From NCBI GenBank assembly GCA_963789615.1, contig CAWBLI010000009.1:11892-75891 (forward strand): DNA of 64,000 nucleotides, in the 5' to 3' direction. The position numbers and the translations under genes were made by a program. This stretch comes from an uncultured Actinomycetota bacterium (GTDB taxonomy: Bacteria > Actinomycetota > Actinomycetes > JAFAQI01). This document shows positions 1 to 60,260 of the stretch, piece after piece. Each line of letters begins with the position of its first letter. Position 1 is the first letter of the stretch. The notes below the pieces were generated by a model that worked only from the letters and a program-made list of their open reading frames with translations, was not told the origin of the DNA and ran no database searches.

Positions 1-582
1 ATGAGCGCCGTGCTTCGCGGCGAAGATCAGCACCGACAAGGTAAAGAAGCCCAGCAGCAGGAAGCGGGCAAAGGCGCCGGCGGTCGGAAGCCACTTGCCG
101 ACGCTGAAGGACAGCACCGCCGCCAGCACCGAGATCCAGATGAACAACAGGCTGATGACGAAGAACATCGGCGAGGAGAAATCGTTGCCATGGTTGAAGA
201 AAACTGAGAACGCGGTGACGCAGGAGATCGCGAGAGTGCCGCCGAGCCAGACCGGGTTTGTCACCCAGTACAGGAAGTTGTTGACGGCACCGGCGAGGTG
301 TCCGAACGCCAGCCGCGTCCATAGGTAGGGGCCCCCTTCCTGCGGGAAGGCCGCACCAAGCTCGGCGAACAACAGGGCCTGTGGGATGAAGAAGATGATG
401 GCGAAGATCACCATCCACGTGAATGCCTCGCCACCGCTCGAGGCCACCGACGCGATCGTGTCGACGCCGACGATCGTGCAAATGAGGAAGAACAGGATGT
501 CGAAGCGGCCGAAGTGGCGCTTCAGCTTCGCGGTCTCGGTGCGGGCGGCGACGGTGAGGTTTCCGTCGAGGGCGAGCGTCAC
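1..582 (-). CDS. APC-family amino acid permease, 5' part (runs off the window)
   Basis: Manual translation of the minus strand from GTG 582 (GGAGG upstream): ...KLKRHFGRFDILFFLICTIVGVDT...LLFAELGAAFPQEGGPYLWTRLAFG...; AEL..A.P.EGG.Y.W...AFG is the APC signature. Not in the ORF track. Confidence 0.85.
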   Translation of the reverse strand, partial: MTLALDGNLTVAARTETAKLKRHFGRFDILFFLICTIVGVDTIASVASSGGEAFTWMVIFAIIFFIPQALLFAELGAAFPQEGGPYLWTRLAFGHLAGAVNNFLYWVTNPVWLGGTLAISCVTAFSVFFNHGNDFSSPMFFVISLLFIWISVLAAVLSFSVGKWLPTAGAFARFLLLGFFTLSVLIFAAKHGAH

Positions 583-701
583 GCGGCCTCCGGGCTCGGT
601 CGCCGGACCGCTGGGAAGCGCCGTGGGACGGCAGCTGACCGGGCGGTCAGGAGCACATCACATCGCTACTGGTTACCGCCATAGCTTGCGGCGACCAATG
701 C

Positions 702-1076
702 TCACCGCTCGATGATCACGTTGGTGGCCTTGACCACCGCGATGGCCTGCACGCCGGCCTCGAGCTCCAGGTCGTCGGCCGCCTCGCGGCTCATCAGCGA
801 CACGATCCGGTGGTCACCGCACGACATCTCGACCTGAGCCATCACGCCGTCACGGACGACGGACACGACGACACCGGGGAGTCGGTTGCGGGCGCTGGAC
901 TTGCGGCGCGAGCCGCCTCGGGCCTGGAGCAACGCCGCCAGCTCGGACGCGGGCAGCATCCGCTGGTTGCCCTGCCGGACGAAGGTGACCCGGCCGTCCG
1001 CCTCCCACCGGCGCAGCGTGTCGATGCTCACGCCGACCGCCTTGGCCACCTCGCCGATGCGCAACAGGTCGTCCAC
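702..1076 (-). CDS. MerR/excisionase-type HTH + TOBE (Mop) molybdate/tungstate-responsive regulator
   Basis: N-terminal LRIGEVAKAVGVSIDTLRRWE HTH; C-terminal SSARNRLPG...VKATNV Mop/TOBE motif. Confidence 0.9.
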   Translation of the reverse strand: MDDLLRIGEVAKAVGVSIDTLRRWEADGRVTFVRQGNQRMLPASELAALLQARGGSRRKSSARNRLPGVVVSVVRDGVMAQVEMSCGDHRIVSLMSREAADDLELEAGVQAIAVVKATNVIIER

Positions 1077-1099
1077 GGCGCCTTACCTTAAGGGACCCG

Positions 1100-2051
1100 C
1101 TAGGCCGAATCTCTCGGCGTCACGAGCTGTCCGTCTCGGTAGCGAACCCCCCCGGTGATGCGAACCGTGAGCGACTCACCAACCTGCGGGCCCGGCAACG
1201 GCACCAGGGCCGACAGCCGACCGCCCTCGACGTCGAGCTCGGCGCGGGCACCGTCCTCTACCGGGATCAGCCGCGTCACGGTCGCGACCAGCTCACCCGC
1301 CGGGTCGACCTGGACGTGCACCGGGCGGGTCAACAGCTGATCCGGGCCCACCTGAAGCTCGCCCGTGAACCCCAGGAACCGCGCGACCTCAGGGGTCGGA
1401 GGCCGGTCGAGCACGTCGCGGGGAGGGCCGGCGGCCGCGATGCGGCCCGCGAGCAGCACGACCAACCGGTCGGCCAGCGCCCACGCCTCGGCGCGGTCGT
1501 GGACGACGACGACCACGGCGCCTGCGCTCCCCCGCAGCGCGATGGCGGCATCGTCGAGCAGCGCCGCCCGGGCGGCGTTGTCCAGCCCGGCGAACGGCTC
1601 GTCCAGCAACAACAGGTCGGGCTGGATCGCCACAGCGCGCGCCAGATGCACCCGCCGTCGCTCGCCGCCCGACAGTGTGGCTGCCGGACGGTCTGCGAGA
1701 TGGTCGGCGCGCATGGCGGTGAGTGCCTCGACCGCCCGGGTACGCCGGGCCCGTCGGGGCGCGCCCGACCAGGCGAGGGCCAGCTCGACGTTGGCGCGTG
1801 CGCTTCGCCGCGCCAGGTCGGGCGATTGCAACGCAGCCGCCACCCGGCCGTTGCGCTGAATGGTTCCGGCCGATGGCTGCAGCAGGTTCGCGAGCGTCTC
1901 CAGCAGGGTGCTCTTCCCGGCGCCGTTCGGGCCCGAGCACCGCCACCACCTCGCCCGGGCTCACATCGAGATCGACGTCCTCGAGGATCCGACGGCTTCC
2001 GCGGTCGACGCTGAGGCCAACCGTCCGCAGCACCGCTGTCGAAGCCGTCAC
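1100..2051 (-). CDS. ABC transporter ATP-binding subunit (TupC/ModC-like), one frameshift near 1930
   Basis: Walker [10 protein letters not shown] is split across frames at a G run; LSGGE signature, LLLLDEP Walker B, C-terminal OB/TOBE-like region. Confidence 0.85.
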
Positions 2052-2771
2052 GACGAGGCCCGGAACCGGAAGCCGGTCTGGTCGCGTTGCTGCAGGAAGG
2101 TCAGCGCGGCGATGATGACGGTCATCAGGCCGAGCAGGACGATCCCGATCGCCACGGCCTCCGAGTAGTTGGCACCGGCGACCTGCGCGAGCGCCGCGCT
2201 GGCCAGCGTCTCGTCGCGGCCCTGGATGTTGCCGCCCACCAGGACGATCGCGCCCACCTCCGACAGCGCCGAACCGACCGTGGCGATGGCGGCGGTGATG
2301 ACCCCGATCCGGGCCTCGCGCAGCGCGAGCCCCCACACCTGGACGGTTCCGGCGCCGAACGCCCGGGCCTGCGCGAGCAGCCCCACCGGAACGGCCTGCA
2401 CCGCGGCGCTGGTGAGGGCGACGACGATCGGCGCGGCCAGCAGGGTCTGGGCCAGGTAGATCCCGTGCAGCGTGTAGATCAGGTGCAACCGACCCAGCGG
2501 AGCCGCCGGGAACATCAGCAGGTACAGCACCAGCCCGATCAGCACCGGTGGCAGGACGAAGCGCGACGTTGACGAGCACGAGGGCGATGCCGTCGGCCGC
2601 GGGAACCGACCCAGCCCCAGCGCGAGACCGAGCGGGACGCCCGAAGACCAACGCGATCGTCGTCGAGAAGAAGGCCACCTTGAGGGTGACCCAGGTGATC
2701 TGCCGCAGGTAAGGATCGCCCGTGATGATGAGGTGCCACGCCTGCCGGACGCCGTCCCACAGGAACTCCAC
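2048..2771 (-). CDS. ABC transporter permease (TupB-like tungstate permease), frameshifted around 2560-2640
   Basis: IGLVLYLL..PAAPLGRLHLIYT...LAQTLLAAPIV...LSEVGAIVLVGGNIQG matches the TupB pattern; N-terminus VEFLWDGVRQAWHLIITGDP lies in another frame. Confidence 0.85.
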
Positions 2772-3097
2772 TAGGGGCTCGCTGTGCCTGTGACATAGAC
2801 CAGCTGACCGTTCGGGAGCCGATAGACGGTGCCCACCTTGGTGCCCTGCCCGACCGCGTGGGCGCCGGGCGACGGAAGCGTGTGGATCGTCTGGCCGGGC
2901 GAGATCTGGATGGTGCCTGGCGCGACCGGGTTGAGCCCGGTCTTCGTGATCGCCTTGGTGAGGTTGAGCGACGACAGCGCCGCGAGCAGGAACGCGACCG
3001 CGAGCACGATGCCGAGGTCGAAGAGGTTGACCAGGCCGTCGAGCGGGTCGCCGTTGCGGTCCTCGCGGCGCCGGGCATTCGGCGTCACCTGGATCAT
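2771..3097 (-). CDS. DUF2149 family single-TM protein (HmuV-like)
   Basis: DPLDGLVNLFDLGIVLAVAFLLA and C-terminal GQGTKVGTVYRLPNGQLVYV are the DUF2149 hallmarks; GGAGG RBS before ATG 3097. Confidence 0.85.
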   Translation of the reverse strand: MIQVTPNARRREDRNGDPLDGLVNLFDLGIVLAVAFLLAALSSLNLTKAITKTGLNPVAPGTIQISPGQTIHTLPSPGAHAVGQGTKVGTVYRLPNGQLVYVTGTASP

Positions 3098-3743
3098 GGC
3101 GCGCCTCCGGCTCGTGAGACCGGTGTCGTCGGTGAGCACAGCCGCGACGTACTCGAGGTCGGAGAGGTCCTGGCCGTAGATCCGGTCGCGGTACAGCGTC
3201 ACCGCGAACGCGACGCCGCCGATCAGCAAGCCCAGCACCGTGACGCTGAACGCCACCCGTAGGTCCTGGCTGAGCTCGTGGACGTTGCCGCGGGCCAGGC
3301 CATCGAGCGCCGGCGACAGCGGGATCAGGGTGCCCATCAGACCGAGCGCCGGGCCGGCCCGGACCAGCAGCCTGGTGCGGCCGAGCTTGCGTTGCGACGC
3401 GAAGTCGAAGTCGGCCAGCGCCTTCGCCAGCTCGGTGTCCGCGCCCGGGCGCACCGGCCTGGGCGGCGATGGTGGCGAGGGTGCCGGCCATGGCCGGGCT
3501 CCACGCGGCCTTCGACAGAGCGCGGCAACCGCCGACTCGTCACCCTCGTCGAGCGCGCGTCGCGCCAGTCTCGGCGGTGGTCGACAGCAGCGGAAAGCTC
3601 CGCCGTTGACGGGAGTGGAACTCAACGAGGAAGCCGCCGACCTCGACGATCACCGCCGCCAGGGCGAGCAACGCCAGGATGAGGACCGGAACCTCGAGGA
3701 CCGACGCGACGTGGAAGATCGCCTCGTCGATGGCATGGGTCAC
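3094..3743 (-). CDS. MotA/TolQ/ExbB proton-channel family protein (HmuU-like), frameshifted
   Basis: GPALGLMGTLIPL...LRVAFSVTVLGL matches ExbB/MotA TM2-TM3; N-terminal TM is in ORF 3540..3743. Confidence 0.85.
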
Positions 3744-3753
3744 GGCAGCGACA

Positions 3754-5068
3754 CTATCGACGCCGCAGCGTCAACCAACCACGCTCCCGAGCAATCCCGA
3801 CTCCCAGCAGCAGCAGAACGGCCCCGACGTAGATCGGTATGACACCGGGGCTCCAGCTCGTGGCGTCAGCGGTCGCCGACAGCGCGGAGTCCGACACGAT
3901 CGCCGACTCGCTGGCCGCCGCACTCAGTGACACCGGTTGTCCCGCGCCGATCACCTGGCCGCTGACGAATGCCAGCTGGTCGCCGCCGCCGTTTGCGATC
4001 AGCGGTTGTTGACCGGAGAGCCGGGCACCGAGGCGGGTCGCGATCGACGGACCGAGGGCCAGCTGACCCAGCCCCGGAAACTTCGCGTGCCGGTGGTTGT
4101 GGGCGCCCCGGCCGGGCGTCGCCGGTGCGCTCGTGACCGGGTGCGGAGTAGCGGAGTGGGTCGGTGACGGCGTGTGGGTGGTGCCGGGCCGCGGGCTCGG
4201 CGACGAGCTCGGCTTCGGCGATCCGGCGACGGTGATGGTCAGCGGGTCGGCGATGCCGCCGGACCCGTCACTGGCTCCGGTGACCTTCAGCAGCACCGAG
4301 TAGGTCCCCGACGCGCTGAACGCGTGCGACAGGCTTGGCGTGCTCGCGGTGTGACCGTCACTGAACGACCACGAGTACTCCAGTGACGACGGGTCAGAGG
4401 ACCCGGTCACGGTCGCGGTGAAGCTGACCGGCGTCACCCACCGGAACATGGTTGTGCCGGCTCGCCTTGGCGGTGACGGTCAACGTCGGACCGGTGAAGA
4501 CGTAGACGTCCAGCGGATCGCTCTGGTCGTTGGGGGTGAAGATGTCCTGCTCGTTGGCATCATCGAAGCTCGTGAGCGGCCGCACATATCCCACCGAGTT
4601 GCCGGTCGAGTAGACGGCCGGGACCTGCGAGGACACGAAGGTGCCGGACGCCGCCGGGTCTTGCAGCTCGGCCGTCGTCAGCGTCGCCCAGGTGCCGTCG
4701 TTGCGCAGGACCGCCGTGTGCAGATCGCCACCGCCGACATCGACGCCACTGGCGGCCAGCAGGCCGTGCAGCGAGAGCGCATCGGACACGCACACGGTGC
4801 CGTTGGTCTCGCCGTCCTTCTCGCCGGCAAACCGCTTGTCGTAACAGGTGTTGTTCGGTACGTCGGAGTCCTGCGCGAGCTGTGCCGGCGTGAACTGCTG
4901 CACGAGAGTGGGGTTGCCATCTTGGTACTCGAGGACGTTGACGCACCCGCCGCTCGACGGGCACGCCGTGTCAGCAGCCGCTGATCGGGCCGCAGGCACG
5001 ACGCAGACTCCCGCGGTCAGCACGACTACGGCCGTGCGACCGAGGAGTCCGCGACGGGTGAACCTCAG
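3754..5068 (-). CDS. Exported, C-terminally membrane-anchored PKD-domain protein, frameshift near 4445
   Basis: In-frame Tat-like signal (L/M)RFTRRGLLGRTAVVVLTAG from CTG 5068; PKD motif YSWSFSDGHT...HAFSASGTYSVLLKVT; Pro/Ser/Thr linker; C-terminal TM and RRR tail. Confidence 0.75.
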
Positions 5069-6762
5069 TTCACCGTCACCATTCGAGATGCGGAGGTCCC
5101 GGTGAAGGTTTGTCCGGCAGTCACGTACTTCAGTCTAAGCCGCCAGGTGAAGCCACGCGCGAGGTGGAAGTGGAGCACGAAGTTGTGCTTGCCCGCCTTC
5201 ACGTCCCGCTTGCCCACGAACTTCAAGGCATGACCGGAGTGACCGGCGTACAGGCTCAGGTGGGCGAAGGCGCCGGTCGACGACGGCTTGAGGCCACCCT
5301 TCATGGTGACCCGTCCCAGGTGCGCGCTCACCTTGTGGATGGCGACGGTGGCCCGCACGTTGACCCGTCCAGCCGACTTCGAGGCAGGAGACAGCAGATC
5401 GCCGAACACCGGGCTCAGGGTGGCGTTCTCGATCTGGGAGATCTCGCCGGTCGAGACGGTGTACTTCGCGTTGGCGTTGGGGTGGACGGTGAACGAGTAG
5501 TTCCCGTTCGCCTTCGTGCGCACCGACTTCAGGACGACCGGCTTGGCGCCCGGGTTGGCCTTGGCGACGGAGATCCGCAGCGCCGAGAGGGTCACCTTCT
5601 TATCTGCGAGCTTCGGCGTGCCCGGCACCACGTTGCGTAACGACCCCTTGATGGTGAACGCCTTGCCGGCTTTCACGGATTCCGGGAGCTTCGACGTCGT
5701 GATCACGGGGGCCGCGTCTTTGAGGAACGGCGAACCACCGGGCGCGTCCTTCAAGTAGTTGTTCGCGGCGGTCTGCCCGGCCGGCGAGCTCAGCCACTGG
5801 ATGAACGCCAGGGCCAGGATCGGGTTGAGGTTCGCGGTGCTCGGCACCGCGGCCGGGTTGATGGCGTATGCGTGGAAGGAGTTGACCAGCAACGTCGTCT
5901 TGCCGGGGGCGCTGGCTGAGTTGGCCTTGTTGATCACCTTGAGGTTCGGGATCAGGTCGCTGCTTCTCGAGGTTGTCGTACGTTCCCCGGTCGGTGATCG
6001 TGTAGCAGCCGGTCAGACCGGTGCACGCATTGGTGAACTCGACGTTGGCGGACTGCGAGTGGTCGTTGGTGGCCTGGTACCACGAGGGTGCGGGCTGCGG
6101 GCAGTCACCGGTAGCGGTGGCGGGCGTCGTACCGCCACCGTTCGCCGTGCTCACGGTGCAGCGTCGTCACGCCGCTGGTCAGTGCCCAGATCTCGTGCTC
6201 CTCGACGTTGGTGCCGGAGTTGTCGCTGCGCGAGATGAAGGTGGCCTCGTTGCTGGCCCCAGCCGCGGCAATGTCCTGGAACGCGCCCACGATGTTGCCC
6301 GCGTCGCCGTTAGGCGTCCACGTGGGCCGGGTCGGACGTGGGTCCGAGCAGCACGAAGTCGCCGTGGAAGACGGCTCGGCCGTACTTCTCCAGCGAGAAG
6401 CCGCTGCCTACGAACTGGTTCTCCAACGACGCCGCGTGCACGAGCAACGCACTGCCGTTCCCGGCCTCCGCGTCGGTGATCGCGGCCTGAGTGCCCTCAC
6501 CCTTGTACCCGACCGAGATGTGCACGCCCCGATGGGCGTTGTCGTAGAACGACGTGAAGTCGGCGGTCAGCACGTTCGACAGCCCGGAGTCCGACACATC
6601 GCTCGTCCCGACGATGGTCAGGGTCGTTGAGTTCGTCTCCGCCCGGGAGGCCGGCGGGCTGAGCGCGAAGCCCACCAGGACCGCCAGTACGGCGAGAAAT
6701 ACCACGATGACGCGGCTATGGGAGATCGACAGGGGGCGCGAGTGCGCGAGCGTTGTGGGCAC
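5065..6762 (-). CDS. TupA-like (PBP_like_2) tungstate/molybdate-type substrate-binding protein with ~210-aa C-terminal extension; about 3 frameshifts
   Basis: Motifs across ORF pieces: VGTSDVSDSGL, LLVHAASLENQF, DFVLLGPTSDPA, FISRSDNSGT, YTITDRGTY, AINP; Sec-type signal peptide. Confidence 0.8.
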
Positions 6763-6782
6763 GGATCGGACCTTAACCCCCG

Positions 6783-6797
6783 TGCCAATGTTTTGCA
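6783..6797. promoter_or_regulatory. Imperfect palindrome TGCcAAtgtTTtGCA, candidate operator of the Mo/W operon
   Basis: AT-rich inverted repeat overlapping a putative -35 (ATGCAA-N17-TAAGGT on the minus strand) just upstream of the TupA-like start. Confidence 0.4.
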
Positions 6798-6945
6798 TAG
6801 GTTTCCTAGCGCCGTCCCCACCGAAACCCGGGTGACGCCGCGCCGACATCGGACTACCGTCCGCAAGAACCGACAACCACGATCGACGACTTCAGGGAGG
6901 TGAGGACCGTGCCGCTGCTGACGCCTGCCCATCGACCCGTCCTCC

Positions 6946-7998
6946 GTGAAAGGCACCCCGTTGTCGTCTCCCGAACTGTCGTTCCTGCACCGAATCGGCC
7001 TCAGCGCGAGCATCGAGGCCGCACTTAGCAGGTACGCCGAGATCCATCGACTCGGTCGCATCTGCCGCGTCGATCGAGCCGCCGTTGACGTGCTCACCGC
7101 GTCCGGCACGATGCGCGTGACCACCCGCTCGACCGATCCCGTGATCGTCGTCGGTGACTGGGTCGCGGTGGTCGACGGCGCGGTGGCTGCCGTCGCCCCA
7201 CGACAGGCCACCATCGTCCGCGCGGCAGCGACCGGTGAGTCCGTCGAGCAGCCGCTGGTCGCGAACGTTGACGTAGTACTCGTCGTGGTCGCCACGGTTC
7301 CCGCGCCGCGGCTCGCCATGGTCGAACGCCTCGTCGCCCTCGCGTGGGACAGCGGGGCGACCCCGGTCATCGTGGTCACGAAGGCCGACCTCACCAGTGA
7401 CCCGGTCGGAGTGGCCGCGGACATCGGAGGCAGCGCCCCAGGCGTCGAGCTGCACTGCATGAGCGCCACGACCGGCGCCGGTCTCGACGAGCTGACGGCG
7501 TACGACCTTCCCGGCACGACCCTGTGCCTGCTGGGGCGGTCGGGTGCGGGGAAGTCCACCCTCGCCAACGTGCTGCTGGGCGAACACCGGCTCACCACGG
7601 GTGAGATCCGTAGCGACGGCAAGGGCCGTCACACCACGTCGCACCGGGAGCTGGTGACACTGCCCGGCGGCGGCGTGCTGGTCGACACGCCGGGACTTCG
7701 CGGAGCCGGCCTGTGGCTCGACGGCGACGGGCTGACCCGGGCATTCCCGGAGATCGACGACCTCGTCACGCAGTGCCGGTTCTCCGACTGCGGCCACCTC
7801 ACCGAGCCAGGGTGCGCGATCCTCGCCGCCATCGACGAGGGGCGACTCCCCCGCCGCCGGCTCGACAGCTGGCGCAAGCTGCAACGTGAGGCCGCCTGGA
7901 TGGCATCGCGTGGCGATGCCCGGCTGCGCAACGAGGCGCTTCGGCAGTGGAAGATCCGCAGCCGCGAGACCCGCCGGTCGGGACGGATCCGGCCTTAG
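6946..7998 (+). CDS. rsgA: Ribosome small subunit-dependent GTPase A (probably a paralogue; start may be TTG 6961)
   Basis: Circularly permuted GTPase order TKAD, GRSGAGKST, GRHTT, DTPG; Zn site CRFSDCGHLTEPGC. Confidence 0.92.
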   Translation: MKGTPLSSPELSFLHRIGLSASIEAALSRYAEIHRLGRICRVDRAAVDVLTASGTMRVTTRSTDPVIVVGDWVAVVDGAVAAVAPRQATIVRAAATGESVEQPLVANVDVVLVVVATVPAPRLAMVERLVALAWDSGATPVIVVTKADLTSDPVGVAADIGGSAPGVELHCMSATTGAGLDELTAYDLPGTTLCLLGRSGAGKSTLANVLLGEHRLTTGEIRSDGKGRHTTSHRELVTLPGGGVLVDTPGLRGAGLWLDGDGLTRAFPEIDDLVTQCRFSDCGHLTEPGCAILAAIDEGRLPRRRLDSWRKLQREAAWMASRGDARLRNEALRQWKIRSRETRRSGRIRP

Positions 7999-8132
7999 CC
8001 GGCCGTCGGGCTGCGACCCAGCCGCCTAAGCCATCCAGCAGGCGGAAATAGGACTTCCTCCTGATGTGGCCGGCTACCTCAGACGCCGATCGTGGACTTC
8101 GTCACCGAGAGAGCACCACACAAGGAGTTGAC

Positions 8133-8402
8133 ATGAAGATGCCCGCGACATTCTCCGAGGCGTTCATGCAGGCCGAGCTCGACTACCGGCGCGAGCGCCT
8201 CAACGGCGTCGTGGCGCGGCAGCCGCGAGTCCACCGGCCCACGGTCCGGCGGCGGTGGCGGCGCGGCAGCGCCCCGCGCCGGTCGCACGCCGGTCAGCAC
8301 GCCGGTGAGCACGCAGCCGACCCAGACTGCACCGGTCTGCCGGCCGATCCACGCCGGCACTCTGCACTGAGGCAGAAAACGTGTCGCATTCAGCAGCCAT
8401 GA
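8133..8402 (+). CDS. Small hypothetical protein preceding the LAL regulator
   Basis: AAGGAG RBS then ATG; AELDYRRERL segment; 3' end uncertain. Confidence 0.5.
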   Translation: MKMPATFSEAFMQAELDYRRERLNGVVARQPRVHRPTVRRRWRRGSAPRRSHAGQHAGEHAADPDCTGLPADPRRHSALRQKTCRIQQP

Positions 8403-11374
8403 TGGAGGCTGTGCCGTTCGAGATCACGCTGAGCCCGCTGGTCGGGCGCTCTGACGAGCTGCTACGACTCACCGACCTCGTCGGGGTGGGCACCGACCAC
8501 GGCGGCGCGGTGCTGCTGGGAGGCGACGCCGGCGCCGGGAAGAGCCGGCTGCTGGCCGAGCTCTGCCAGCAGGCCCGCGGATCCGGATGGCGAGTGCTCG
8601 TCGGGCACTGTCTGGACTTCGGCGACAGCTCGCTTCCGTACCTCGCGTTCAGCGAGGCATTTGGCCGCCTGGTGACCGAGACGCCGGGCCTCGCCGGCAC
8701 TTTGCTCGAGGCGAGTCCGGCGATCGCTCGGCTGCTCCCTGCCCAGCGGCTGCTCGCCGGCGCCGAGTCCGACCGGCAGCCGACCGACCGGGCCGCACTC
8801 CTCGACGCCGTGCATGGCGCGCTCGGTCGGCTCGGGGCGGAGTCGCCGCTACTGCTCGTCGTCGAGGACGTGCACTGGGCCGACCAGTCGACCCGAGACC
8901 TGCTGAGCTTCCTGTTCTCCCGGCAGTTCGACACGGCCGTCGCGGTCGTGGCGTCGTATCGCAGCGACGAGCTTCACCGCCGCCATCCGTTGCGCGGCGC
9001 GCTGGCCGAATGGTCGCGGCTGCCTGCGGTCAGCCGGCTGCAGCTCGACCCGCTGCCGCAGTCGGCGGCGCGCGAGCTCATCCGTGGTCTTCAGCCCGGC
9101 TCGTTGCTGGAGCACGACCTCCAGCTCATCGTCGAGCGAGCCGAGGGCAACCCGTTCTTCATCGAGGAGCTGGTCGCGGCGGCCGAGGTCAGCGGAGGCG
9201 CCCTGCCGACGAACCTCGCCGACCTGCTGCTGGTCCGCCTCGACCAGCTCGACGACAACGGCCGGTTGGTGGTGCGGGCAGCATCGGTCGTGGGTCGCCG
9301 GGTGCCCCACGATCTGCTGGCGCAGGGCGCCGGGCTCGACAGCGCCGCGCTCGACCAAGCCCTGCGTGCGGCCGTCGAGGCCAACGTGCTGATCGCGGTC
9401 GAGGCCGACAGCTATGCGTTCCGGCACGCCCTGCTGGCCGAGGCGGTGTACCAGGACCTGCTTCCCGGAGAGCGGGTCCGGCTGCACGCCGCCTACGCGA
9501 CGGCGCTTGCCACCGGGCGCGCCGACGGCACCGCCGCCGAGCTCGCCCGCCACGCGCGGGCTTCGCACGACCTGGTGACTGCGTTGCGCGCCAGCATCCA
9601 GGCCGGCGACGAGGCAATGGCCGTCGGCGGTCCGGATGAGGCTGCCCGACACTACGAGCTGGCCCTCGAGCTGCTCGCCGATCCAGCGGTCTCCGCAGCC
9701 GTCGGCCAGGAAGGTGACCTGACAGCGGTCGACCCGATCAGCCTGGTGCTGCGGGCCAGCAACGCCGCAGCGGCGGCCGGTCATTGGTTCCGGGCGATGG
9801 CGCTCGTCGAGGAGCAGCTACGGGCGCTGCCGGCCGACGCACCGCTCATCGACCGGGTGCGCCTGCTGCAGGCGGTCGCGGAGTTCGCGCTGCACCTGGA
9901 CAGTCCGGTCGACATTCTCGCCATGACCACGGAGGCGGTGCAGCTGTTGCCGGCAGAGCCGCCGACCGCGCTGCGCGCGCGGGTCCTCAACACCCACGCC
10001 CGTGCTTTCGCCGACCGGGCCCGCAAGGACGAGGCGATCCAGTTTGCGACCAAAGCTCAGCAGCTCGCGCGCGAGCTGGGGCTTCCAGACGTGCTGGCGG
10101 ACTCGGCGACCACGCTCGCCCGAATCGACAAGGACGCCGGGGATCCAGGCGCCTCCGAGACCTGGCTGCTCGAGGCCATTGCCGATGCCCGCACGTCCGG
10201 TGAGGTGGCGTCGGAGCTGCGCGCCCTGACCACGCTCGGGACGCTGTCCTACAACCAGGGTCGGCTCGGACCCGCCCTGGAGGCCTACGAGCAGGCCGGG
10301 CGCCGGGCTCGGGAGGCCGGTCGACCCTGGGCGCCGTACGGTCTCGATGCCCTCTTCATGTCTGCACTCGTGGCGCACGTCAGCGGGGACTGGGAGCTGG
10401 CCGACCGGATCCTCGACGTGTCCGACCAGTCACCTCCGGAGTTCGCCGAGGCGCTGCTCGCGGCCATCGGGATGCAGCTCGCCGCCGACCGGGGCGACGT
10501 CGCCGCCCTGGACCGGATGCCCGGGTTGCGCAGCTGGTGGCGCCGCGACGGCTTGATCGGCATCACCAGCGGCGGGGCCGCCATCGACCTGCTGGGTCAG
10601 CGCGGCGATCTGGCCGGAGTTCTTGCGATGTACGACGACGTCGTGGCCAGCGTCAGCAAGCTGTGGCAAAACATGGGGTTCCATGCTCGGATCCGGCTCA
10701 GCGCGTTGGCGTTGGGTCAGCTGGCGACGGCCGCGGCGACCGCGAACGCGGCCGAGCGGGATGCTCTGGTCGCCCGGGGCGAAGCGCTCGCGGCGAGGGC
10801 CGTCGAGATCAGCAAGGACGAGCGCTCCCATGGCCCGGAAGGGCTAGCCTGGCTGGCTCGCGCCGACGCCGAGTACGCCCGGCTGCGCTGGTTGGCTGGA
10901 GTGAACCCACCTCCGGAGTCGGAGCTGGTGGAGGCGTGGCGCGCGGCGGTCGAGGCGTTCGACCGCTTCGGCCATGCCCATGAGACCGCCCGCTCCCGCG
11001 CTCGACTCGCCGCCGTGCTGCGCGCGACCGGTCACACGGTCGAGGCGAGCGAGCAGGCCGGCCAGGCTCGCGAGGTCGCGGCCCGGCTAGGCGCGCGCCC
11101 GTTGCTCGCCGAGCTTCGGGCCATGGGCGAAGGCGGTACGTCGACGAGCCGCCCGGCCCGCTCGGTGGCGGACGACTCGCTGACCCCCCGCGAGACCGAG
11201 GTCCTGACGCTCGTCGCGGCAGGGCGGAGCAACGGGGAGATCGCCGGGCAGCTGTTCATCAGCACCAAGACGGTCAGCGTGCACGTGTCCAACATCCTGG
11301 CCAAGCTCGGCGCCGCCAGCCGCACCGAGGCGGTAGCGCTCGCCGGACGGCGCGGCCTGCTGCCGGGCACCTAG
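8381..11374 (+). CDS. Large ATP-binding LuxR-family (LAL) transcriptional regulator
   Basis: Walker A GDAGAGKS, VEDVHWAD, EGNPFFIEEL, TPR-like middle region, C-terminal LuxR HTH (LTPRETEVL...KTVSVHVSNILAKLG). Confidence 0.95.
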   Translation: MSHSAAMMEAVPFEITLSPLVGRSDELLRLTDLVGVGTDHGGAVLLGGDAGAGKSRLLAELCQQARGSGWRVLVGHCLDFGDSSLPYLAFSEAFGRLVTETPGLAGTLLEASPAIARLLPAQRLLAGAESDRQPTDRAALLDAVHGALGRLGAESPLLLVVEDVHWADQSTRDLLSFLFSRQFDTAVAVVASYRSDELHRRHPLRGALAEWSRLPAVSRLQLDPLPQSAARELIRGLQPGSLLEHDLQLIVERAEGNPFFIEELVAAAEVSGGALPTNLADLLLVRLDQLDDNGRLVVRAASVVGRRVPHDLLAQGAGLDSAALDQALRAAVEANVLIAVEADSYAFRHALLAEAVYQDLLPGERVRLHAAYATALATGRADGTAAELARHARASHDLVTALRASIQAGDEAMAVGGPDEAARHYELALELLADPAVSAAVGQEGDLTAVDPISLVLRASNAAAAAGHWFRAMALVEEQLRALPADAPLIDRVRLLQAVAEFALHLDSPVDILAMTTEAVQLLPAEPPTALRARVLNTHARAFADRARKDEAIQFATKAQQLARELGLPDVLADSATTLARIDKDAGDPGASETWLLEAIADARTSGEVASELRALTTLGTLSYNQGRLGPALEAYEQAGRRAREAGRPWAPYGLDALFMSALVAHVSGDWELADRILDVSDQSPPEFAEALLAAIGMQLAADRGDVAALDRMPGLRSWWRRDGLIGITSGGAAIDLLGQRGDLAGVLAMYDDVVASVSKLWQNMGFHARIRLSALALGQLATAAATANAAERDALVARGEALAARAVEISKDERSHGPEGLAWLARADAEYARLRWLAGVNPPPESELVEAWRAAVEAFDRFGHAHETARSRARLAAVLRATGHTVEASEQAGQAREVAARLGARPLLAELRAMGEGGTSTSRPARSVADDSLTPRETEVLTLVAAGRSNGEIAGQLFISTKTVSVHVSNILAKLGAASRTEAVALAGRRGLLPGT

Positions 11375-11386
11375 GGTCGAGGGCGG

Positions 11387-12403
11387 TCAGGCCCGGTATC
11401 CGGCTGCCAGCTCGCGCAGTCGAGCGTGAGCCTCGTCGTACACCGCGACACCTGGCAGGAACTGCTTCGCCACCTTGGCGACCGAGGTGTAGTTGGTGTC
11501 GACGACGTTGGCCAGCGGCGCCTCCACCACCTGCGAGAGCAGTTGGTAAGCGTCGAGCTGATGCATGCCGAAGTCCGACACCGCCCAGGACACCAGGTCG
11601 TGCTGCGCCACCCGGAAGGCGTCCTCGAGCGGACGAGCTGACCCGATGCTCATCAGGTGGGTGTCGGTCTCGAGCCGCGGGGTCGGGCACGGCCGGCCCT
11701 TGATGAGGTCGACCGCGATCGTCGTGTCCATGGCGCACTCGGCCGCCACGCCGCAGGTCTCGCCCTCACCCTGCCGGGCGTGCCCGTCGCCGATCGACAG
11801 GAGCGCGCCCTCGACGTTCACACCCAGGTAACAGGTGACACCCACCCTCATCTCCGGCGTGTCCATGTTGCCGCCGAAGACATCCGGCACCAGGGCTGAT
11901 CGCACCTCGAGATTCGGTGGTGCGACCCCAACCGTGCCGTGCATCGGGCTCATCGGGACGTCGACCGCCCAGTCGCCGAACCGTGACTCGAAGCGCGCCA
12001 GGTCACGATCGCGGTCGAGCTGCCAGATCCACACCACCTCAGGCAACGGGTCCTGCAGGGTCGCCGTGAGATGGGTGCTGGTCAACGCTCCGAACAGCGG
12101 CACGGTGGTCGACGCCGCCCAGTCCCGCGCTGGCCGCATCGAGATGAAGTGGACGGCGACGGTGTCTCCCGGTTCGGCTCCCTCGATGTAGAACGGTCCG
12201 GTTTGCGGGTTGAGGAACGGGAACTCACACACGTCGGAGACCAGGTCATCCTGGCTGCGGACCCGGCCGGCGAAGCAGTCCTCGGTGTAGAGCTCGAGGA
12301 TCGTCCCGGGCGTGACCGTCGCGACCGGAGCCGCACCGCCGAACGTCCACGCGTAGTCGCCTTCCCCGGGGCGATAGGTGAGGGTCCTTGGATCTGCAGC
12401 CAT
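11387..12403 (-). CDS. Acetamidase/formamidase family protein
   Basis: NPQTGPFYIEGAEPGD, GGNMD, GDGHARQGEGE motifs. Confidence 0.92.
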   Translation of the reverse strand: MAADPRTLTYRPGEGDYAWTFGGAAPVATVTPGTILELYTEDCFAGRVRSQDDLVSDVCEFPFLNPQTGPFYIEGAEPGDTVAVHFISMRPARDWAASTTVPLFGALTSTHLTATLQDPLPEVVWIWQLDRDRDLARFESRFGDWAVDVPMSPMHGTVGVAPPNLEVRSALVPDVFGGNMDTPEMRVGVTCYLGVNVEGALLSIGDGHARQGEGETCGVAAECAMDTTIAVDLIKGRPCPTPRLETDTHLMSIGSARPLEDAFRVAQHDLVSWAVSDFGMHQLDAYQLLSQVVEAPLANVVDTNYTSVAKVAKQFLPGVAVYDEAHARLRELAAGYRA

Positions 12404-41034: not shown

Positions 41035-41504
41035 GTCGGCCCCGCCATCGAGTCGGCCGCCGCGAGTACGGCGCGGACGATGTTGTGGTACCCGGTGCAC
41101 CGGCACAGGTTGCCCTCGAGGCCCTCGCGAACTTGTCTCTCGGTGGGCTGCGGACAGTCGTTCAGCAGAGCAGCCGCCGCCATCACCATGCCTGGCGTAC
41201 AGAACCCACACTGCAGCCCGTGTTCGGCCCGGAACGCGGCCTGCACCGGATGGAGGTCGTTACCTGCCGCGGCAAGACCTTCCAGCGTGGTGACCGAGGC
41301 ACCGTCGGACTGAACCGCGAGCACCGTGCAGGACTTCACCGCCTCGCCGTCGATGTGCACGGTGCAGGCGCCGCACGACGTCGTGTCGCAGCCGATGTTG
41401 GTGGCCTTGAGCCCGCAGGTGTCGCGCACATAGTGGGCGAGCAGCAGCCGTGGCTCGACGTCGTCGGTGCGGGCGGTCCCGTTGACCGTGATCGAGACCT
41501 GCAT
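41031..41504 (-). CDS. 2Fe-2S subunit (CoxS-like)
   Basis: [26 protein letters not shown]. Confidence 0.95.
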
Positions 41505-43801
41505 CAGGCGTCCTTCGCAGCGTTGATAGCGGACCAGACCCGCATCGAGGTGGTCGGCATGTCGATGTGACGTACGCCGAGGTGCGCAACTGCGTCGATG
41601 ACCGCATTCTGCACCGCAGGCGTCGCCCCGATCGTGCCGGCCTCGCCGATTCCCTTGGCTCCTAAGGCGTTGTAGCTCGTCGGCGTCTCTGTCGTTACCA
41701 GCTCGAAGCTGGGCAGCTCGGTTGCCGAGACGATCGGGTAATCGGCGAACGTCGTGGTGGTGGGGTTGCCGTCCTCGTCGTACAGGAGCTCTTCGAGCAG
41801 GGCCTGTGCTGCTCCCTGGGCGAGGCCGCCGTGGCGCTGTCCCTCGGCGACGAGCGGGTTGATGATCGTGCCAGCATCGTCCAGAGCGATGAGCCTCCTC
41901 AGCTCGGCCTTGCCGGTCTCGATGTCAACCTCGGCGACGGCGACGTGAGCGCCAAACGGATACGTAGCGCCGGGAGCGGTGAACACCGCCCTGACGAGAA
42001 GCCGCTCCTTCTCGGCGAGGGCGGCGAAGCTGATCGCTACGGCAGGGTCACCTCGTACGGCAAGCCCAGCCAGGGCGTGGTCGACGATGAGGTCCTCGGG
42101 GGCGACTTCGAGCTCGTCCGAGGCGCGAGCTCGGGCCAGTTCAACCAGCTCCAGCGATGCCTGCTTCACCGCCGCTCCGCCCTGCTGCAGGCTGCGTGAC
42201 CCGGCGGTGCCGCCGCCCTGCGGGACCAGGTCGGTGTCTCCCCACTTCACGGTGATTTTCTCGATCGGGATCCCGAGCTCGTCGCTGGCGAGCATGGCCC
42301 AGACCGTCGAATGGCCCTGGCCGTGTGGCGAGGTGCCGGTGAGGATGGTGGCTGTTCCGTCTGGGTGCACCTCGACCGTCGCGTTCTCGCTCGGCGGGCC
42401 TGACTCGTCACCGCCACCGGTGATCTCGACGTAGACGCTGAGACCGATCCCGAGCTGGCGCAGGTCACCGCGCTGGCGGCGGGCAGCCTGTTCACGCCGC
42501 AGCCCGTCGTAGTCGGCGGCGGTGAGGACGGTATCGAGCGCCGCCGGGTAGTTGCCCGAGTCGTAGAGCGCTCCCCCTTTGGTCGTCAACGGCTCGGTGA
42601 AGGCAGGAAGCAGATTGCGTCGGCGTACCTCGGCCGGATCCATGCCGATCTCGGTGGCGAACAGGTCCATCGCGCGTTCGACGACCGCGGTGGCCTCGGG
42701 CCGGCCCGCACCGCGGTAAGCGCCGAGCGGCGTCGTGTTAGTGACGACGCTGGCGTAGGACGTCTCCAGCCGGTCGAAGTCATAGACCGCCGACGCCATC
42801 AGCAATGTCAGCGTCGGGAGGATTGCCCCGAAGCGGGGGTACGCGCCGCTGTCCTGCAGCACGTGCAGCCGGTAGGCCTTAACGTTGCCGTCGCGATCAC
42901 CGCCGATCGTGACGGTCTGGAGCTGCGCCCGGCCATGAGTCATCCCGACCATGTTTTCCGAGCGGGTCTCGACCCAGGTCGCTGGACGGCCGAGGTGCCG
43001 GGCAACCCAGCAGACGAGGACCTGCTCAGGGTCGGCCCCGAACTTCGCGCCGAACGCGCCGCCGACCGCGGGAGTGATCACGCGCACCTGCTCGGTGGTC
43101 AGGCCCAACCTGGACGTCAGGACGGTCTGGGTGTCCTGGGCGCCCTGGTTCGGGATCCAGGCGGTCAGCCGGCCCTCGTCCCAGACCGCCGCGGCGCTGC
43201 GCACCTCGAGCGGCGCGACCGCGACTCGCTGGTTGATGATCTCCTGGGTGACGACGACCTCGCAGTCGTCAAAAGTGTCCGCCTGCTCCTCGGGGTCTTT
43301 GCTCATCACGACGTTCGTGCCGACATCGGGGAACAGAATCGTGTCACCCTGCAAGGCCGCCCGCGGATCGATGACGGCCTGGAGTGGCTCGTACTCGACC
43401 TGGACGAGCTCGGCGATGTCCTCGCCGGTGTAGCGGCCGTCATGTACGACGATCGCAACCGGCTCTCCGACGAAGCGGACAGTGTCCGTGGCGAGCAGCG
43501 GCTGCGCGAACCCCGCGTCGTACATGGGCAGCATCGGCTCCTGCTGCGGAACGTCGGTGAGATCCGTTGCGGTGAACACCGCGAGGCATCCGGCAGCATC
43601 GGTGGCTGCGGTCGTGTCGATCGAGAGAATCGTGGCGTGAGCCATCGGCGACCGGACGAAGGTGATCCGGACAGCGTGTTCGAGCCGTTCGTCGACCAGG
43701 TCCTCGGTGTAGACCGCGCCGGTGGTGAGGAACTCCGGGTCCTCGAGTCGATTGACGCGGGTGCCGAGAATGCTGCCGCGCGGAACACCGACGCTAGTCA
43801 T
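41504..43801 (-). CDS. Molybdopterin-binding large subunit (form II CoxL-like)
   Basis: VGGAFGAK, AYRGAGRPE, GQGH, GAKGIGEAG. Confidence 0.92.
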   Translation of the reverse strand: MTSVGVPRGSILGTRVNRLEDPEFLTTGAVYTEDLVDERLEHAVRITFVRSPMAHATILSIDTTAATDAAGCLAVFTATDLTDVPQQEPMLPMYDAGFAQPLLATDTVRFVGEPVAIVVHDGRYTGEDIAELVQVEYEPLQAVIDPRAALQGDTILFPDVGTNVVMSKDPEEQADTFDDCEVVVTQEIINQRVAVAPLEVRSAAAVWDEGRLTAWIPNQGAQDTQTVLTSRLGLTTEQVRVITPAVGGAFGAKFGADPEQVLVCWVARHLGRPATWVETRSENMVGMTHGRAQLQTVTIGGDRDGNVKAYRLHVLQDSGAYPRFGAILPTLTLLMASAVYDFDRLETSYASVVTNTTPLGAYRGAGRPEATAVVERAMDLFATEIGMDPAEVRRRNLLPAFTEPLTTKGGALYDSGNYPAALDTVLTAADYDGLRREQAARRQRGDLRQLGIGLSVYVEITGGGDESGPPSENATVEVHPDGTATILTGTSPHGQGHSTVWAMLASDELGIPIEKITVKWGDTDLVPQGGGTAGSRSLQQGGAAVKQASLELVELARARASDELEVAPEDLIVDHALAGLAVRGDPAVAISFAALAEKERLLVRAVFTAPGATYPFGAHVAVAEVDIETGKAELRRLIALDDAGTIINPLVAEGQRHGGLAQGAAQALLEELLYDEDGNPTTTTFADYPIVSATELPSFELVTTETPTSYNALGAKGIGEAGTIGATPAVQNAVIDAVAHLGVRHIDMPTTSMRVWSAINAAKDA

Positions 43802-43892
43802 CGCGACCTCTCGAACACGGGTCCTCCAGATCGCCGTCACACCGATCGTCCAGCTGACACTAAACCGGGCGCAATCGTCGGACGTGGGCTAG

Positions 43893-52459: not shown

Positions 52460-52614
52460 CGCCACCCCTCCACGGCGGTCAACGCCCGCCGGAAGTCGAA
52501 CTGTACGTGAGACCGTTCCGGAGCGGTCCGGACTGGCCGTCACCACCGATTTCCCACCCGGTCGAATCGTCCTCTAGACTTGCCGCGTCCCCGACGGAGG
52601 ACGTCGAGGCATCC

Positions 52615-52687
52615 GCCCTCATCGTCCAGTGGCCTAGGACGCCGCCCTTTCAAGGCGGTAACACGGGTTCGAATCCCGTTGGGGGTA
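52615..52687 (+). tRNA. tRNA-Glu(UUC)
   Basis: Cloverleaf; anticodon arm CCGCC-CTTTCAA-GGCGG; TTCGAA T-loop. Confidence 0.95.
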
Positions 52688-52706
52688 CGCCAGACCTCTT
52701 CACCGA

Positions 52707-52780
52707 GGTCCCGTGGAGCAGCTGGAGTGCTCGCCGCCCTGTCAAGGCGGAGGTCGCGGGTTCAAATCCCGTCGGGACCG
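52707..52780 (+). tRNA. tRNA-Asp(GUC)
   Basis: Cloverleaf; anticodon arm CCGCC-CTGTCAA-GGCGG; TTCAAA T-loop. Confidence 0.95.
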
Positions 52781-52890
52781 CTCATTCACTGTCATTGCGA
52801 GTCGACTGCACCAGTCGGGCTAACGGCGAGGCCCCAGTTTGGGCCGGATGGCGCCGCCTGACGTTGGCGGGAGCCGGGCATGACAACACC

Positions 52891-53094
52891 ATGACCGACT
52901 CAGACTTCGTCACCATGCACGCGTGGCTGCGTTACAACCGCGCCCGCTACGAGATGTTGGCCCGGCGGGCCGAACGCGAGGCCGCACGGACAGTCAGCGT
53001 TTCCCCGACGCGACGAACGACCGGACCGCAGCTAGTCCACGGCGCGCTCGTTCAGCAGCGCGGGCCGACATTGGAGTGGTCGAGCCAGCGTTAG
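52891..53094 (+). CDS. Small hypothetical protein
   Basis: MTDSDFVTMHAWLRYNRARYEMLARR; no motif recognised. Confidence 0.4.
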   Translation: MTDSDFVTMHAWLRYNRARYEMLARRAEREAARTVSVSPTRRTTGPQLVHGALVQQRGPTLEWSSQR

Positions 53095-53141
53095 GCGGAA
53101 CTGGCAGACGAATGATCATCCGAGGCGGCACAATTCCCGCC

Positions 53142-53621
53142 ATGCAACGTTCCGGGACCCGCGCGGCTCTGGATCTCTACGACGAGCTCAGTGGGCCAGA
53201 CGCCCGGGTTGCCGCGTCTGGGCGCGAGGACTCGCTCGTCCTGGTCCATGCGCTGCTCCGGCCGCCGGCCGGCCCCGGACTCCAGCAATGGGAGCGGCAC
53301 ACCAGCAGCCATCCCCTGGTTCTCGACGCCGCGGATCAGCAGCGGGCCGCCTGCGGACTCCGGATGAAAGTCGTCCTGCCCTACCCGTTCGACGAGGAGG
53401 ACGCCGACGCCTGCCCGGGCTGCCGGCGCGAGACGTCCCGCTGGGCGCTCAACCCCGACGGGTGGTGGCTGGAGCAACGCCGGTGGGAACAGCGCAAGCG
53501 GGACGGCGGCGACCTGACCGAGAACGTCGCGTTGTGGCGGGCGCTGGAGGATCGCCGGCGTTCGTGGATCGAGCGCCGCGCCCAGGCCGGCGGGTCCGAC
53601 GAGCCGAGTCCGGCGAACTAG
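53142..53621 (+). CDS. Hypothetical protein with a putative Zn finger
   Basis: VHA...AACG...DACPGC. Confidence 0.55.
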   Translation: MQRSGTRAALDLYDELSGPDARVAASGREDSLVLVHALLRPPAGPGLQQWERHTSSHPLVLDAADQQRAACGLRMKVVLPYPFDEEDADACPGCRRETSRWALNPDGWWLEQRRWEQRKRDGGDLTENVALWRALEDRRRSWIERRAQAGGSDEPSPAN

Positions 53622-53638
53622 TCCTCGGCCAGTACGCC

Positions 53639-58358: not shown

Positions 58359-58432
58359 TCCCTGTAAAGTGGCCGGGCACCTCAGCACGACCCGGTTTGC
58401 GGACCTCGGCGGCCAGCCGTACGCCGCAGGAC

Positions 58433-58506
58433 GGGCAGGTAGCTCAGTTGGTACGAGCGCCCGCCTGAAAAGCGGGAGGTCGGCGGTTCGACCCCGCCCC
58501 TGCCCA
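58433..58506 (+). tRNA. tRNA-Phe(GAA)
   Basis: GGGCAGGTAGCTCAGTTGGTACGAGCGCCCGCCTGAAAAGCGGGAGGTCGGCGGTTCGACCCCGCCCCTGCCCA. Confidence 0.95.
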
Positions 58507-58516
58507 CTGGCGACGA

Positions 58517-59692: not shown

Positions 59693-59812
59693 GATGCCGC
59701 AACCATAGACGGGGGTCCTGGGCCGGTACTAGCACCATCGTCCAGTTGCGAGTCGGACCGCCGGGTGTCGATGCTGGGCTCGAGGGACGGGTCAGCCAGC
59801 AGCGAGGGAGTC

Positions 59813-60241: not shown

Positions 60242-60260
60242 CCGCAACGGCGCTAACAGT

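Follow-up and report, generated by a model that had tools for sequence, protein, structure and literature searches.

A conserved actinobacterial locus joins a TupABC-lineage importer to an ExbB-like/DUF2149 pair and a PKD stalk protein

We analysed a 64,000-nucleotide stretch of DNA (hereafter the window) from an uncultured Actinomycetota bacterium, in which seven co-directional genes on the minus strand, at 702-6876, appear to join an ATP-binding cassette (ABC) importer of the TupABC lineage to a putative energy module. The window corresponds to C9:11892-75891 of the source genome (G000), an assembly of 9 contigs with 70% GC and 77% marker completeness. From the 5' end, the genes encode a long TupA-like substrate-binding protein (5065-6876; PBP_like_2 at 6310-6876, 30.6 bits), a stalk protein with a PKD domain (3754-5023; PKD_4 at 3754-4449, 49.9 bits), a MotA/TolQ/ExbB-family protein (3098-3743; MotA_ExbB, 26.7 bits) and a DUF2149 protein (2771-3097; 55.4 bits), both domains being matched in one open reading frame at 2771-3625, a TupB-like ABC permease (2048-2771; BPD_transp_1 at 2048-2545, 33.7 bits), a TupC-like ABC ATPase (1100-2051; ABC_tran at 1100-1843, 46.7 bits) and an intact 124-residue regulator with a MerR-type helix-turn-helix (HTH) and a TOBE/Mop domain (702-1076). 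Pfam matches to pieces of the window's open reading frames identify the domains, and the regulator is recognised through a 96% identical protein in a relative of the same genus (G001), so that the gene order and common direction given in a first-pass annotation of the window are borne out. That annotation ended the locus at 6800; the binding-protein gene extends slightly past this, with a start between about 6762 and 6876 that is ambiguous in the window (TTG 6876, ATG 6798 or GTG 6762).

The intact copy in G001 gives the clearest view of the gene products and their spacing. It encodes a binding protein of 603 residues, a stalk of 421, an ExbB-like protein of 226, a DUF2149 protein of 108, a TupB-like permease of 239, a TupC-like ATPase of about 316 and a regulator of 124. 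The stalk gene follows the binding-protein gene after a 41-bp gap and is separated by 10 bp from the ExbB-like gene, which overlaps the DUF2149 gene by 4 bp; the DUF2149 gene in turn overlaps the TupB-like gene by 1 bp, and that gene the TupC-like gene by about 4 bp, before a gap of 31 bp to the regulator. The claim that the first six genes abut or overlap therefore holds in this copy. Genes in relatives were called with a heuristic based on GC content at third codon positions (GC3) together with tblastn, the Pfam scan of neighbouring genes covered cluster representatives, and many of the compared genomes are incomplete metagenome-assembled genomes (MAGs).

In the window itself, the regulator gene is intact, and each of the other six is spread over two to four frames by 1-bp insertions or deletions (indels). 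The binding-protein gene falls into four frame pieces (6843-6316, 6347-6177, 6163-5927 and 5955-5068), the stalk gene has one break near 4430, the ExbB-like gene carries indels near 3443-3565 and runs on in frame into DUF2149 owing to four extra bases at 3103-3120, the TupB-like gene has four 1-bp insertions at about 2561-2639, and the TupC-like gene is broken once near 1928, within the Walker A region. These could be real frameshifts in a decaying pseudogene cluster, as might be expected from the density of frame-breaking indels (at least 12 within about 6 kb) beside intact long neighbours of 350, 536, 626 and 1002 residues, and from the lower conservation of the broken genes (69-82% identity to G001, vs 85-98% for the intact neighbours). 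We consider decay highly improbable. Relative to G001, the net frame-breaking changes are nearly all single extra G or C residues, with no nonsense codon and no larger deletion, a pattern that fits long-read consensus error. Since the seven G001 proteins align end to end with the window copy when it is read through the frame changes, no in-frame stop interrupts the window genes. Unrelated genes upstream on the same contig are also frameshifted, and the assembly consists of so few contigs yet is only 77% complete.

Contigs from public metagenomes point the same way. Logan contigs of four soil-metagenome runs (X1, X2, X3 and X5, from two studies) match the window with few differences and, at each of the listed positions within their reach (2639, 3103, 3113, 3118, 3120, 3443 and 3564), are without its extra base, with an additional A behind 3521; base 2639 is missing from all covering contigs in X2, X3 and X5. 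This comparison extends to the listed indel positions, its contigs are of low depth and the runs may include the window's own sample, which lessens its weight. With the extra bases missing from near-identical contigs and the full set of seven genes unbroken in a relative of the same genus, consensus (assembly) error is the most likely source of the breaks, rather than gene decay. Thus, where the first-pass annotation called for repair of the indels, the genes are indeed broken as it implied, most likely through assembly.

The frameshifts are clustered and not genome-wide, with nearby genes of 536, 1002, 626, 524, 409 and 360 residues intact. A second cluster relative to G001 lies upstream of the window in unrelated genes, at C9:4066-5157 and about C9:6400 of G000, with three breaks in a gene of 371 residues and one in a gene of 675 residues, and suggests that this assembly contains stretches of poor consensus. 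Within the window, the GC3-based gene calls leave long gaps at 52546-53639, 57702-58517 and 59692-61117, which may be further frameshifted genes or non-coding stretches.

To place the locus among relatives, we used the adjacent ExbB-like and DUF2149 genes as a marker. The pair is found in 6 of 41 genomes around and including the window's genome: in 5 of 24 others of the same family and in none of 16 outside it. The order of all seven genes is identical in G001, G003, G007 and G023, and the contig of G017 ends inside the operon. Orthologous operons thus come from the same genus and from two other genera of the family; among the loci, L013, L014 and L015 have all seven genes, and L016 has five before a contig end. 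Scanning GTDB species genomes with a DUF2149 alignment gave 203 confirmed relatives, of which the best 80 were examined, two of them from genomes already counted (L020 is G017 and L022 is G023). An ExbB-like gene lies directly upstream of DUF2149 in 79 of these 80 loci. In 49, which we call Tup-type, a TupB gene follows within 2.2 kb downstream; all 49 have TupC, and 45 have the long binding protein upstream, the other four comprising two cuts at contig ends, one binding-protein gene placed downstream and one locus with none found. Versions from Solirubrobacterales have two TupB genes. Carriers include Frankiaceae and Mycobacteriales MAGs, Jatrophihabitans, Nocardioides, Frondihabitans sp. PhB188 and many Solirubrobacterales. 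The arrangement is thus conserved well outside the window's genome, in the same family and in 49 of 80 loci.

The binding protein has its best sequence matches in the PDB among solved TupA structures (3lr1, E 1e-19; 5my5, E 9.4e-19; 3muq, E 1.8e-16), and the G001 protein matches PBP_like_2 with 66.7 bits. For TupA, the binding-site residues reported include H59, R118, T124 and D170, together with a lobe-A TTTS motif whose Ser faces the anion (PMC5517513). The equivalents of the four single residues, H150, R218, T224 and D300 in G001, are invariant in all 41 orthologues. Compared with TupABC of Eubacterium acidaminophilum, Desulfovibrio alaskensis and Campylobacter jejuni, the binding-protein core is therefore homologous, with four binding-site positions in common, whereas the protein as a whole is twice as long. 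A segment of about 60 residues with four conserved cysteines is inserted in the PBP_like_2 core, and a C-terminal region of about 215 residues forms two Ig-like domains, matched by CarboxypepD_reg in 25 of 37 members and also by other Ig-like families; a profile search of this region against the PDB gave nothing better than E 0.16, to filamin or transthyretin-like entries. The 41-member alignment places signal-peptide cleavage about 8 residues ahead of a GTSD motif, and a lipobox pattern matches two of the 41 members, both apparently spuriously. The protein is accordingly predicted to be secreted, without the lipid anchor of known TupA proteins and with two extra Ig-like domains. An RR motif occurs in 29 of the 41 aligned signal peptides and is absent from the G001 copy, which the signal region of the window copy resembles, so that assignment to the twin-arginine (Tat) pathway is not confirmed for the window. 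The family comprises at least 532 clusters at 90% identity; the JGI pipeline labels its members 'tungstate transport system substrate-binding protein', and the NCBI label is generic.

The TupB-like protein exceeds the cut-off of the ABC_perm1 subfamily model (159.3 vs 100 bits, NCBIfam), and its next-best NCBIfam match is the TupB equivalog, at 115.4 bits against a cut-off of 320. The TupC-like protein, which has a conserved beta-rich C-terminal domain, best matches generic ATPase models, with no TupC model among the best 25 of its 196 NCBIfam matches. As to the regulator, the G001 protein scores above the cut-offs for Mop TIGR00638 (55.5 vs 55 bits), TOBE (61 vs 22.3) and MerR (35.6 vs 28.2), and the motifs SARNR and VVKAT recur across 21 orthologues. 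By these matches it is a MerR-type HTH fused to a domain of the TOBE/Mop molybdate-binding type.

The genomic setting provides a second line of evidence for molybdenum (Mo) or tungsten (W) as the cargo. The window's genome encodes three MoCoBD_1 genes, two molybdopterin oxidoreductases and MoeA, with no match to the tungstoenzyme family AFOR_N and no ModA over cut-off; having molybdoenzymes and no AFOR_N match, the host differs from the settings of known TupABC systems. One of the MoCoBD_1 domains (window 42611-43324, C9:54502-55215) lies in a 778-residue protein of the CoxL/xanthine-dehydrogenase family (window 41504-43840, minus strand), a likely Mo client and the gene that had been noted about 35 kb away; the match itself is about 36 kb off. 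A weak ModA-like match elsewhere in the genome (30 bits; C8:898000-901246) was read as a sulfate-type system and not counted as ModA, its operon encoding first a 363-residue binding protein of the lipoprotein kind and then two permeases and an ATPase.

Within the window's family, ModA over cut-off is found in none of the 6 carriers vs 13 of the 19 non-carriers (Fisher p 0.005, which overstates the case since related genomes are not independent). Outside the family it is found in 12 of 16 genomes, including two flagged unpublished, and in 1 of 10 further carriers from other lineages. Of five genomes with non-Tup DUF2149 loci, ModA is present in two and a Tup-type binding protein in one other; the remaining two are without either, and the two proteins never occur together. 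In total, ModA occurs in 1 of 17 genomes with a Tup-type system, counts that lose some force from the many incomplete and mutually related MAGs behind them, and MoaA was found in all five further carriers checked. Because 16 of the 17 genomes are without ModA while molybdoenzymes and MoeA (in the window's genome), MoaA (in 5 of 5) and a Mop/TOBE regulator are present, the importer is probably one for Mo or W. The Mo/W link drawn in the first-pass annotation is therefore upheld by indirect signatures: TupA homology, four of five binding-site positions, the Mop/TOBE regulator and near-exclusivity with ModA.

Between the binding protein and the permease lie three genes that known tupABC operons do not have. 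The ExbB-like protein has three transmembrane segments and, in G001, scores 30.4 bits against MotA_ExbB (gathering threshold 22.9); the motif GLMGT in its second transmembrane segment and a Thr (T168) in the third are invariant in 36 of 36 sequences. Its neighbour, the DUF2149 protein (58.6 bits in G001; window copy 99% identical), has an ExbD/TolR-like predicted topology, with a short cytoplasmic N-terminus, one transmembrane helix (22-40) and an outer domain of about 60 residues. An Asp in this helix (D27) is invariant in 5 of 5 sequences; conservation of the surrounding motif among the 80 loci is partly by construction, because the pattern used for the locus search contained it. Pfam finds DUF2149 and not ExbD/TolR (PF02472) on the G001 protein. 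Taken together, the two proteins show the predicted hallmarks of a proton-conducting stator pair of the 5:2 type. DUF2149 is single-copy in the window's assembly and rare in the phylum: of 401 sampled genomes, 16 score over cut-off.

Side by side and in this order, the two Pfam families are also described from a nutrient-acquisition operon, the hmuYRSTUV locus of Bacteroidota, as HmuU (MotA/TolQ/ExbB) and HmuV (DUF2149) (PMC10434189, PMC12583661). In these accounts the pair is taken to drive HmuR, a TonB-dependent receptor of the outer membrane, and the locus contains a CobN-like dechelatase, HmuS (PMC10434189, PMC12583661). In contrast, the partners here are a binding-protein-dependent ABC importer and a PKD stalk. 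The absence of CobN, TonB and a TonB-dependent receptor that was first noted for the window extends to the whole 77%-complete assembly, in which no CobN (CobN-Mg_chel), receptor barrel or TonB_C domain was found; nor was CobN/HmuS seen among the typed neighbours of the 80 loci, as far as cluster representatives were scanned.

The stalk protein begins with a signal peptide and an N-terminal domain peculiar to the family (about 165-180 residues), which are followed by a PKD domain (Pfam, 24 of 27 orthologues), a low-complexity linker rich in P, S, T, A and G (median about 189 residues by a crude measure) and a C-terminal transmembrane helix. The helix is present in 27 of 27 orthologues, ends in LGA.RE with a short basic tail of 8-25 residues, and is preceded by a conserved motif, V.G.L...V.PL....SPLV, just outside the membrane. 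Viewed alongside the ExbB-ExbD-TonB (Ton) and TolQ-TolR-TolA systems, the trio thus has an ExbB-family channel with Thr in the second and third transmembrane segments, a single-pass partner with a transmembrane Asp, and a third protein that is anchored in the membrane and carries its distal domain on a long proline-rich spacer. It differs in that the partner is DUF2149 and not Pfam ExbD, that the stalk is anchored at its C-terminus instead of its N-terminus and has neither a TonB_C domain nor an SHLS motif, and that it presumably does without an outer membrane and without a TonB box receptor. Its client is probably a binding protein in solution or a heme receptor at the cell surface. The host families are generally held, and we take them, to have a single membrane.

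The N-terminal head of the stalk bears on the proposal, made in the first-pass annotation, that a surface protein strips Mo or W from a chelate or pterin cofactor. Pfam finds the molybdopterin-binding domain Oxidored_molyb in 0 of 27 members, and a profile search against the PDB gave no match (best E 1). When the domain's profile was used in a wider search it recovered 455 clusters; among the 150 listed, most proteins are 400-530 residues long and the rest mostly shorter, and the domain sits N-terminally in nearly all, so that no informative fusion emerges. A hidden Markov model of the Tup-type domain, run against 286 called proteins of the 31 loci that are not Tup-type, found five matches, all of them PKD stalk proteins (E 1.9e-19 to 3e-11): three in loci of a heme type described below (L072, L079 and L096), one in a stand-alone locus (L084) and one in L073. 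The C-terminal motif and transmembrane helix are likewise common to stalk proteins of non-Tup contexts. Since heme-type and stand-alone loci share this head family, the stalk head is not Mo-specific, and the stripping proposal is not sustained. A resemblance of the head to small Oxidored_molyb proteins in the Atlas (TM score 0.58-0.62, feature score 0.77) was dropped in view of the Pfam result and of the same domain in heme-type loci.

The remaining 31 of the 80 loci can be grouped by recurring gene contexts. In a heme type, from Thermoleophilia (clear in L072, L079 at 2983-10318, L085 and L096; partial in L078 and L083), a Peripla_BP_2 binding protein, a FecCD permease and an ATPase are accompanied by one or two HtaA-domain proteins, the PKD stalk, the ExbB-like protein and DUF2149. 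Judged by gene content, these are heme-uptake versions of the module in single-membrane bacteria. They resemble the HtaA/HtaB-HmuTUV system of Corynebacterium in that 4 to 6 loci place HtaA and Peripla_BP_2/FecCD/ATPase genes beside the trio; the corynebacterial system is, to our knowledge, a passive heme relay without an ExbB-like component, and we found no account, judging by title, of an HtaA system with ExbB. In nine loci (L082 at 4788-10348, L067, L068, L087, L088, L089, L091, L094 and L095) the ExbB-like and DUF2149 genes form a bare pair, without a stalk gene and in some cases behind a DUF1697 gene; their neighbours are a divergently oriented gene for B12-dependent methionine synthase (MetH) and one for an aldehyde dehydrogenase. 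In four, a stand-alone trio follows PriA and RsmB. A further four or five (among L090:5180-10255, L093:4444-10255, L086, L092 and L097) have upstream genes for secreted prenyltransferase/squalene-cyclase-like toroid proteins and for a protein with DUF4430. The pairing of DUF4430 with a toroid fold presumably resembles cobalamin carriers, and these loci may, on this analysis, be a cobalamin (B12) version of the module.

We then asked how the ExbB-like sequences relate to these contexts. On a tree of 67 rows, thirteen loci having been dropped for short, missing or stop-containing matches, context labels change 10 times against a mean of 24.1 for shuffled labels, and none of 200 shuffles was as low. 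The 34 Tup-type rows from Solirubrobacterales form one clade, and the heme, MetH and stand-alone types share another. Taken with the gene contexts, the ExbB-like/DUF2149/PKD stalk trio is best described as a general module attached to different importers. Its presence in heme-type and stand-alone loci shows that it is not peculiar to Tup.

This breadth invites another explanation, namely that trio and importer share an operon yet work independently, the trio serving the envelope in some general way, for instance by remodelling the wall, displaying surface proteins or generating motility-like force. The four PriA/RsmB loci and the nine MetH/aldehyde dehydrogenase loci, in which the trio or pair has no transporter beside it, fit this explanation, and contact of the trio with the binding protein or the permease is putative. 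We nevertheless find independence distinctly unlikely, given that the trio is inserted between the binding-protein and permease genes with overlapping stop and start codons, that this insertion is kept in 45 of the 49 Tup-type loci across two actinobacterial classes, that ExbB sequences cluster by cargo context, and that the same insertion logic recurs in heme importers. The binding protein itself, with no lipid anchor and with extra Ig-like domains, would need a holder.

On balance, we favour the interpretation that this aerobic soil actinobacterium takes up a group-6 oxyanion, most likely molybdate and possibly tungstate, through a high-affinity importer encoded by the locus, in which a system of the TupABC lineage is joined to a three-part energy module, its frame breaks in the window being assembly errors. 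The ExbB-like and DUF2149 proteins would convert proton-motive force into movement of the stalk protein, which would act as the motor's output arm, an analogue of TonB with its polarity reversed, reaching across the thick wall of a cell that has one membrane. The stalk would engage the binding protein (in heme loci, the HtaA receptors), perhaps by way of the CarboxypepD_reg-like domains of that unanchored protein, and would either bring the loaded protein to the TupB/TupC translocator or force the release of a tightly bound ligand. The MerR-TOBE protein would sense cytoplasmic molybdate or tungstate and set expression. TupA is reported to bind tungstate with picomolar affinity (PMC5517513), which makes mechanical unloading or retrieval of an untethered tight binder plausible, if speculative. 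In Bacteroidota, domains of the CarboxypepD_reg type on TonB-dependent transporters are described as implicated in the interaction with TonB (PMC12204202), and the Ig-like tail of the binding protein is by that token a candidate docking site.

Several results pull against this interpretation. The binding protein scores 65.4 bits against the TupA equivalog NF041772, whose cut-off is 400, and matches it in the N-lobe only; and the TTTS motif, regarded in the literature as characteristic of TupA, is replaced by GTSD in 41 of 41 orthologues, HMMER aligning the Asp to the ligand-facing Ser, so that the ligand could differ. With the TupA and TupB cut-offs failed and TTTS replaced, the description 'TupABC-like' in the first-pass annotation stands as a statement of lineage, through TupA homology, and not of membership. 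A MerR-TOBE gene lies within 6.5 kb in only 24 of the 49 Tup-type loci. One carrier (G443) has both a Tup-type system and ModA, and six family non-carriers and two heme-type genomes have neither. As regards the motor, a profile search with DUF2149 against the PDB found no ExbD/TolR (best E 0.72); the nearest non-DUF2149 Atlas clusters are ExbD, a lead with scores of 0.75-0.76 that fall under the tool's reliability bar. Coupling of motor to importer rests on gene order and architecture, and a 2025 survey deems partial Ton systems in single-membrane Actinobacteria likely non-functional (PMC12204202).

Part of this evidence could be accommodated if the importer took another oxyanion (vanadate, chromate or a sulfate- or phosphate-like anion), or Mo or W bound in a chelate or cofactor, with the motor and surface protein stripping or unloading the ligand. 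With its invariant GTSD the presumed pocket gains a carboxylate, the scores against the TupA and TupB equivalogs fall far short of their cut-offs, other partners of ExbB/DUF2149 (in hmu and HtaA loci) handle tightly bound tetrapyrroles, and the stalk head lies near Oxidored_molyb clusters in the Atlas, a lead that was not carried forward. Carboxylate ligands are, however, compatible with Mo/W oxyanion binding in WtpA-type proteins. We judge another cargo unlikely in the face of four of five invariant TupA binding-site positions, Mop/TOBE regulators at 24 of 49 loci and the strong complementarity with ModA (1/17 vs 13/19); against the stripping variant in particular stand the shared stalk head in heme-type loci, the 0/27 for Oxidored_molyb and the lack of a PDB profile match.

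If the importer for molybdate or tungstate is one instance of a wider principle, then single-membrane Actinomycetota have a working counterpart of the Ton system, in which an ExbB-like protein, DUF2149 in place of ExbD and a reversed TonB analogue, anchored at its C-terminus and bearing a PKD and a novel head domain beyond a wall-spanning spacer rich in P, S and T, pass proton-motive force across the thick wall to ABC importers that depend on binding proteins, in cargo-specific versions (Mo/W, heme and perhaps cobalamin). We offer this generalisation tentatively, as a possibility short of probable. That the motor is conserved, embedded in operons and diversified by cargo beside ABC importers argues that such motors are functional in single-membrane Actinobacteria. 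ExbB-type motors are understood as devices that energise the outer membrane; were the TonB-like interpretation true, it would add a new category of use for them, and bacteria with an outer membrane would not be alone in energising the capture of nutrients outside the membrane. A further question is what an importer would use mechanical work for where there is no outer membrane.

The kinds of component are known, and the combination of importer, motor and stalk is not described in the literature that we found. Judged largely on abstracts, there was no description of a motor-joined Mo/W ABC importer or of a TonB-like module of monoderm Actinobacteria, and DUF2149 appeared in iron and heme work on the hmu locus of Bacteroidota and otherwise in papers unrelated by title. 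The system was thus, to that extent, rightly called undescribed. Of the interpretation as first put forward, the conservation, the Mo/W signatures, the missing CobN and TonB and the lack of a prior description survive, cofactor stripping does not, and the motor belongs to a general module. Three Mo/W ABC systems are recognised, ModABC, WtpABC and TupABC. In a 2018 survey, 278 of 3683 Mo-using bacteria are given as having no known transporter (PMC6147048). The Tup-type system would fill part of this gap for soil Actinomycetota without ModA, and the existence of cultured carriers (Frondihabitans sp. PhB188 and Nocardioides sp. TRM66260-LWL) makes direct testing possible.

Finally, the region upstream of the operon offers some hints about its control. 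A promoter and terminator scan of 500-7100 gave nothing beyond shuffled expectation, Rfam had no match in window 1-12000 (E up to 0.1) and none at gathering score in the loci of 8 relatives, and no Moco riboswitch was found among them. Comparison by eye of the window, G001 and G003 shows a common box at 6760-6801 on the minus strand, CCTA.G.AAAAC ... TA[AG]GGT, with a GTG 7 nt further on. This box may combine a promoter with an operator of the MerR type, the start being leaderless, in which case ATG 6798 would belong to the operator and would not be a start codon.

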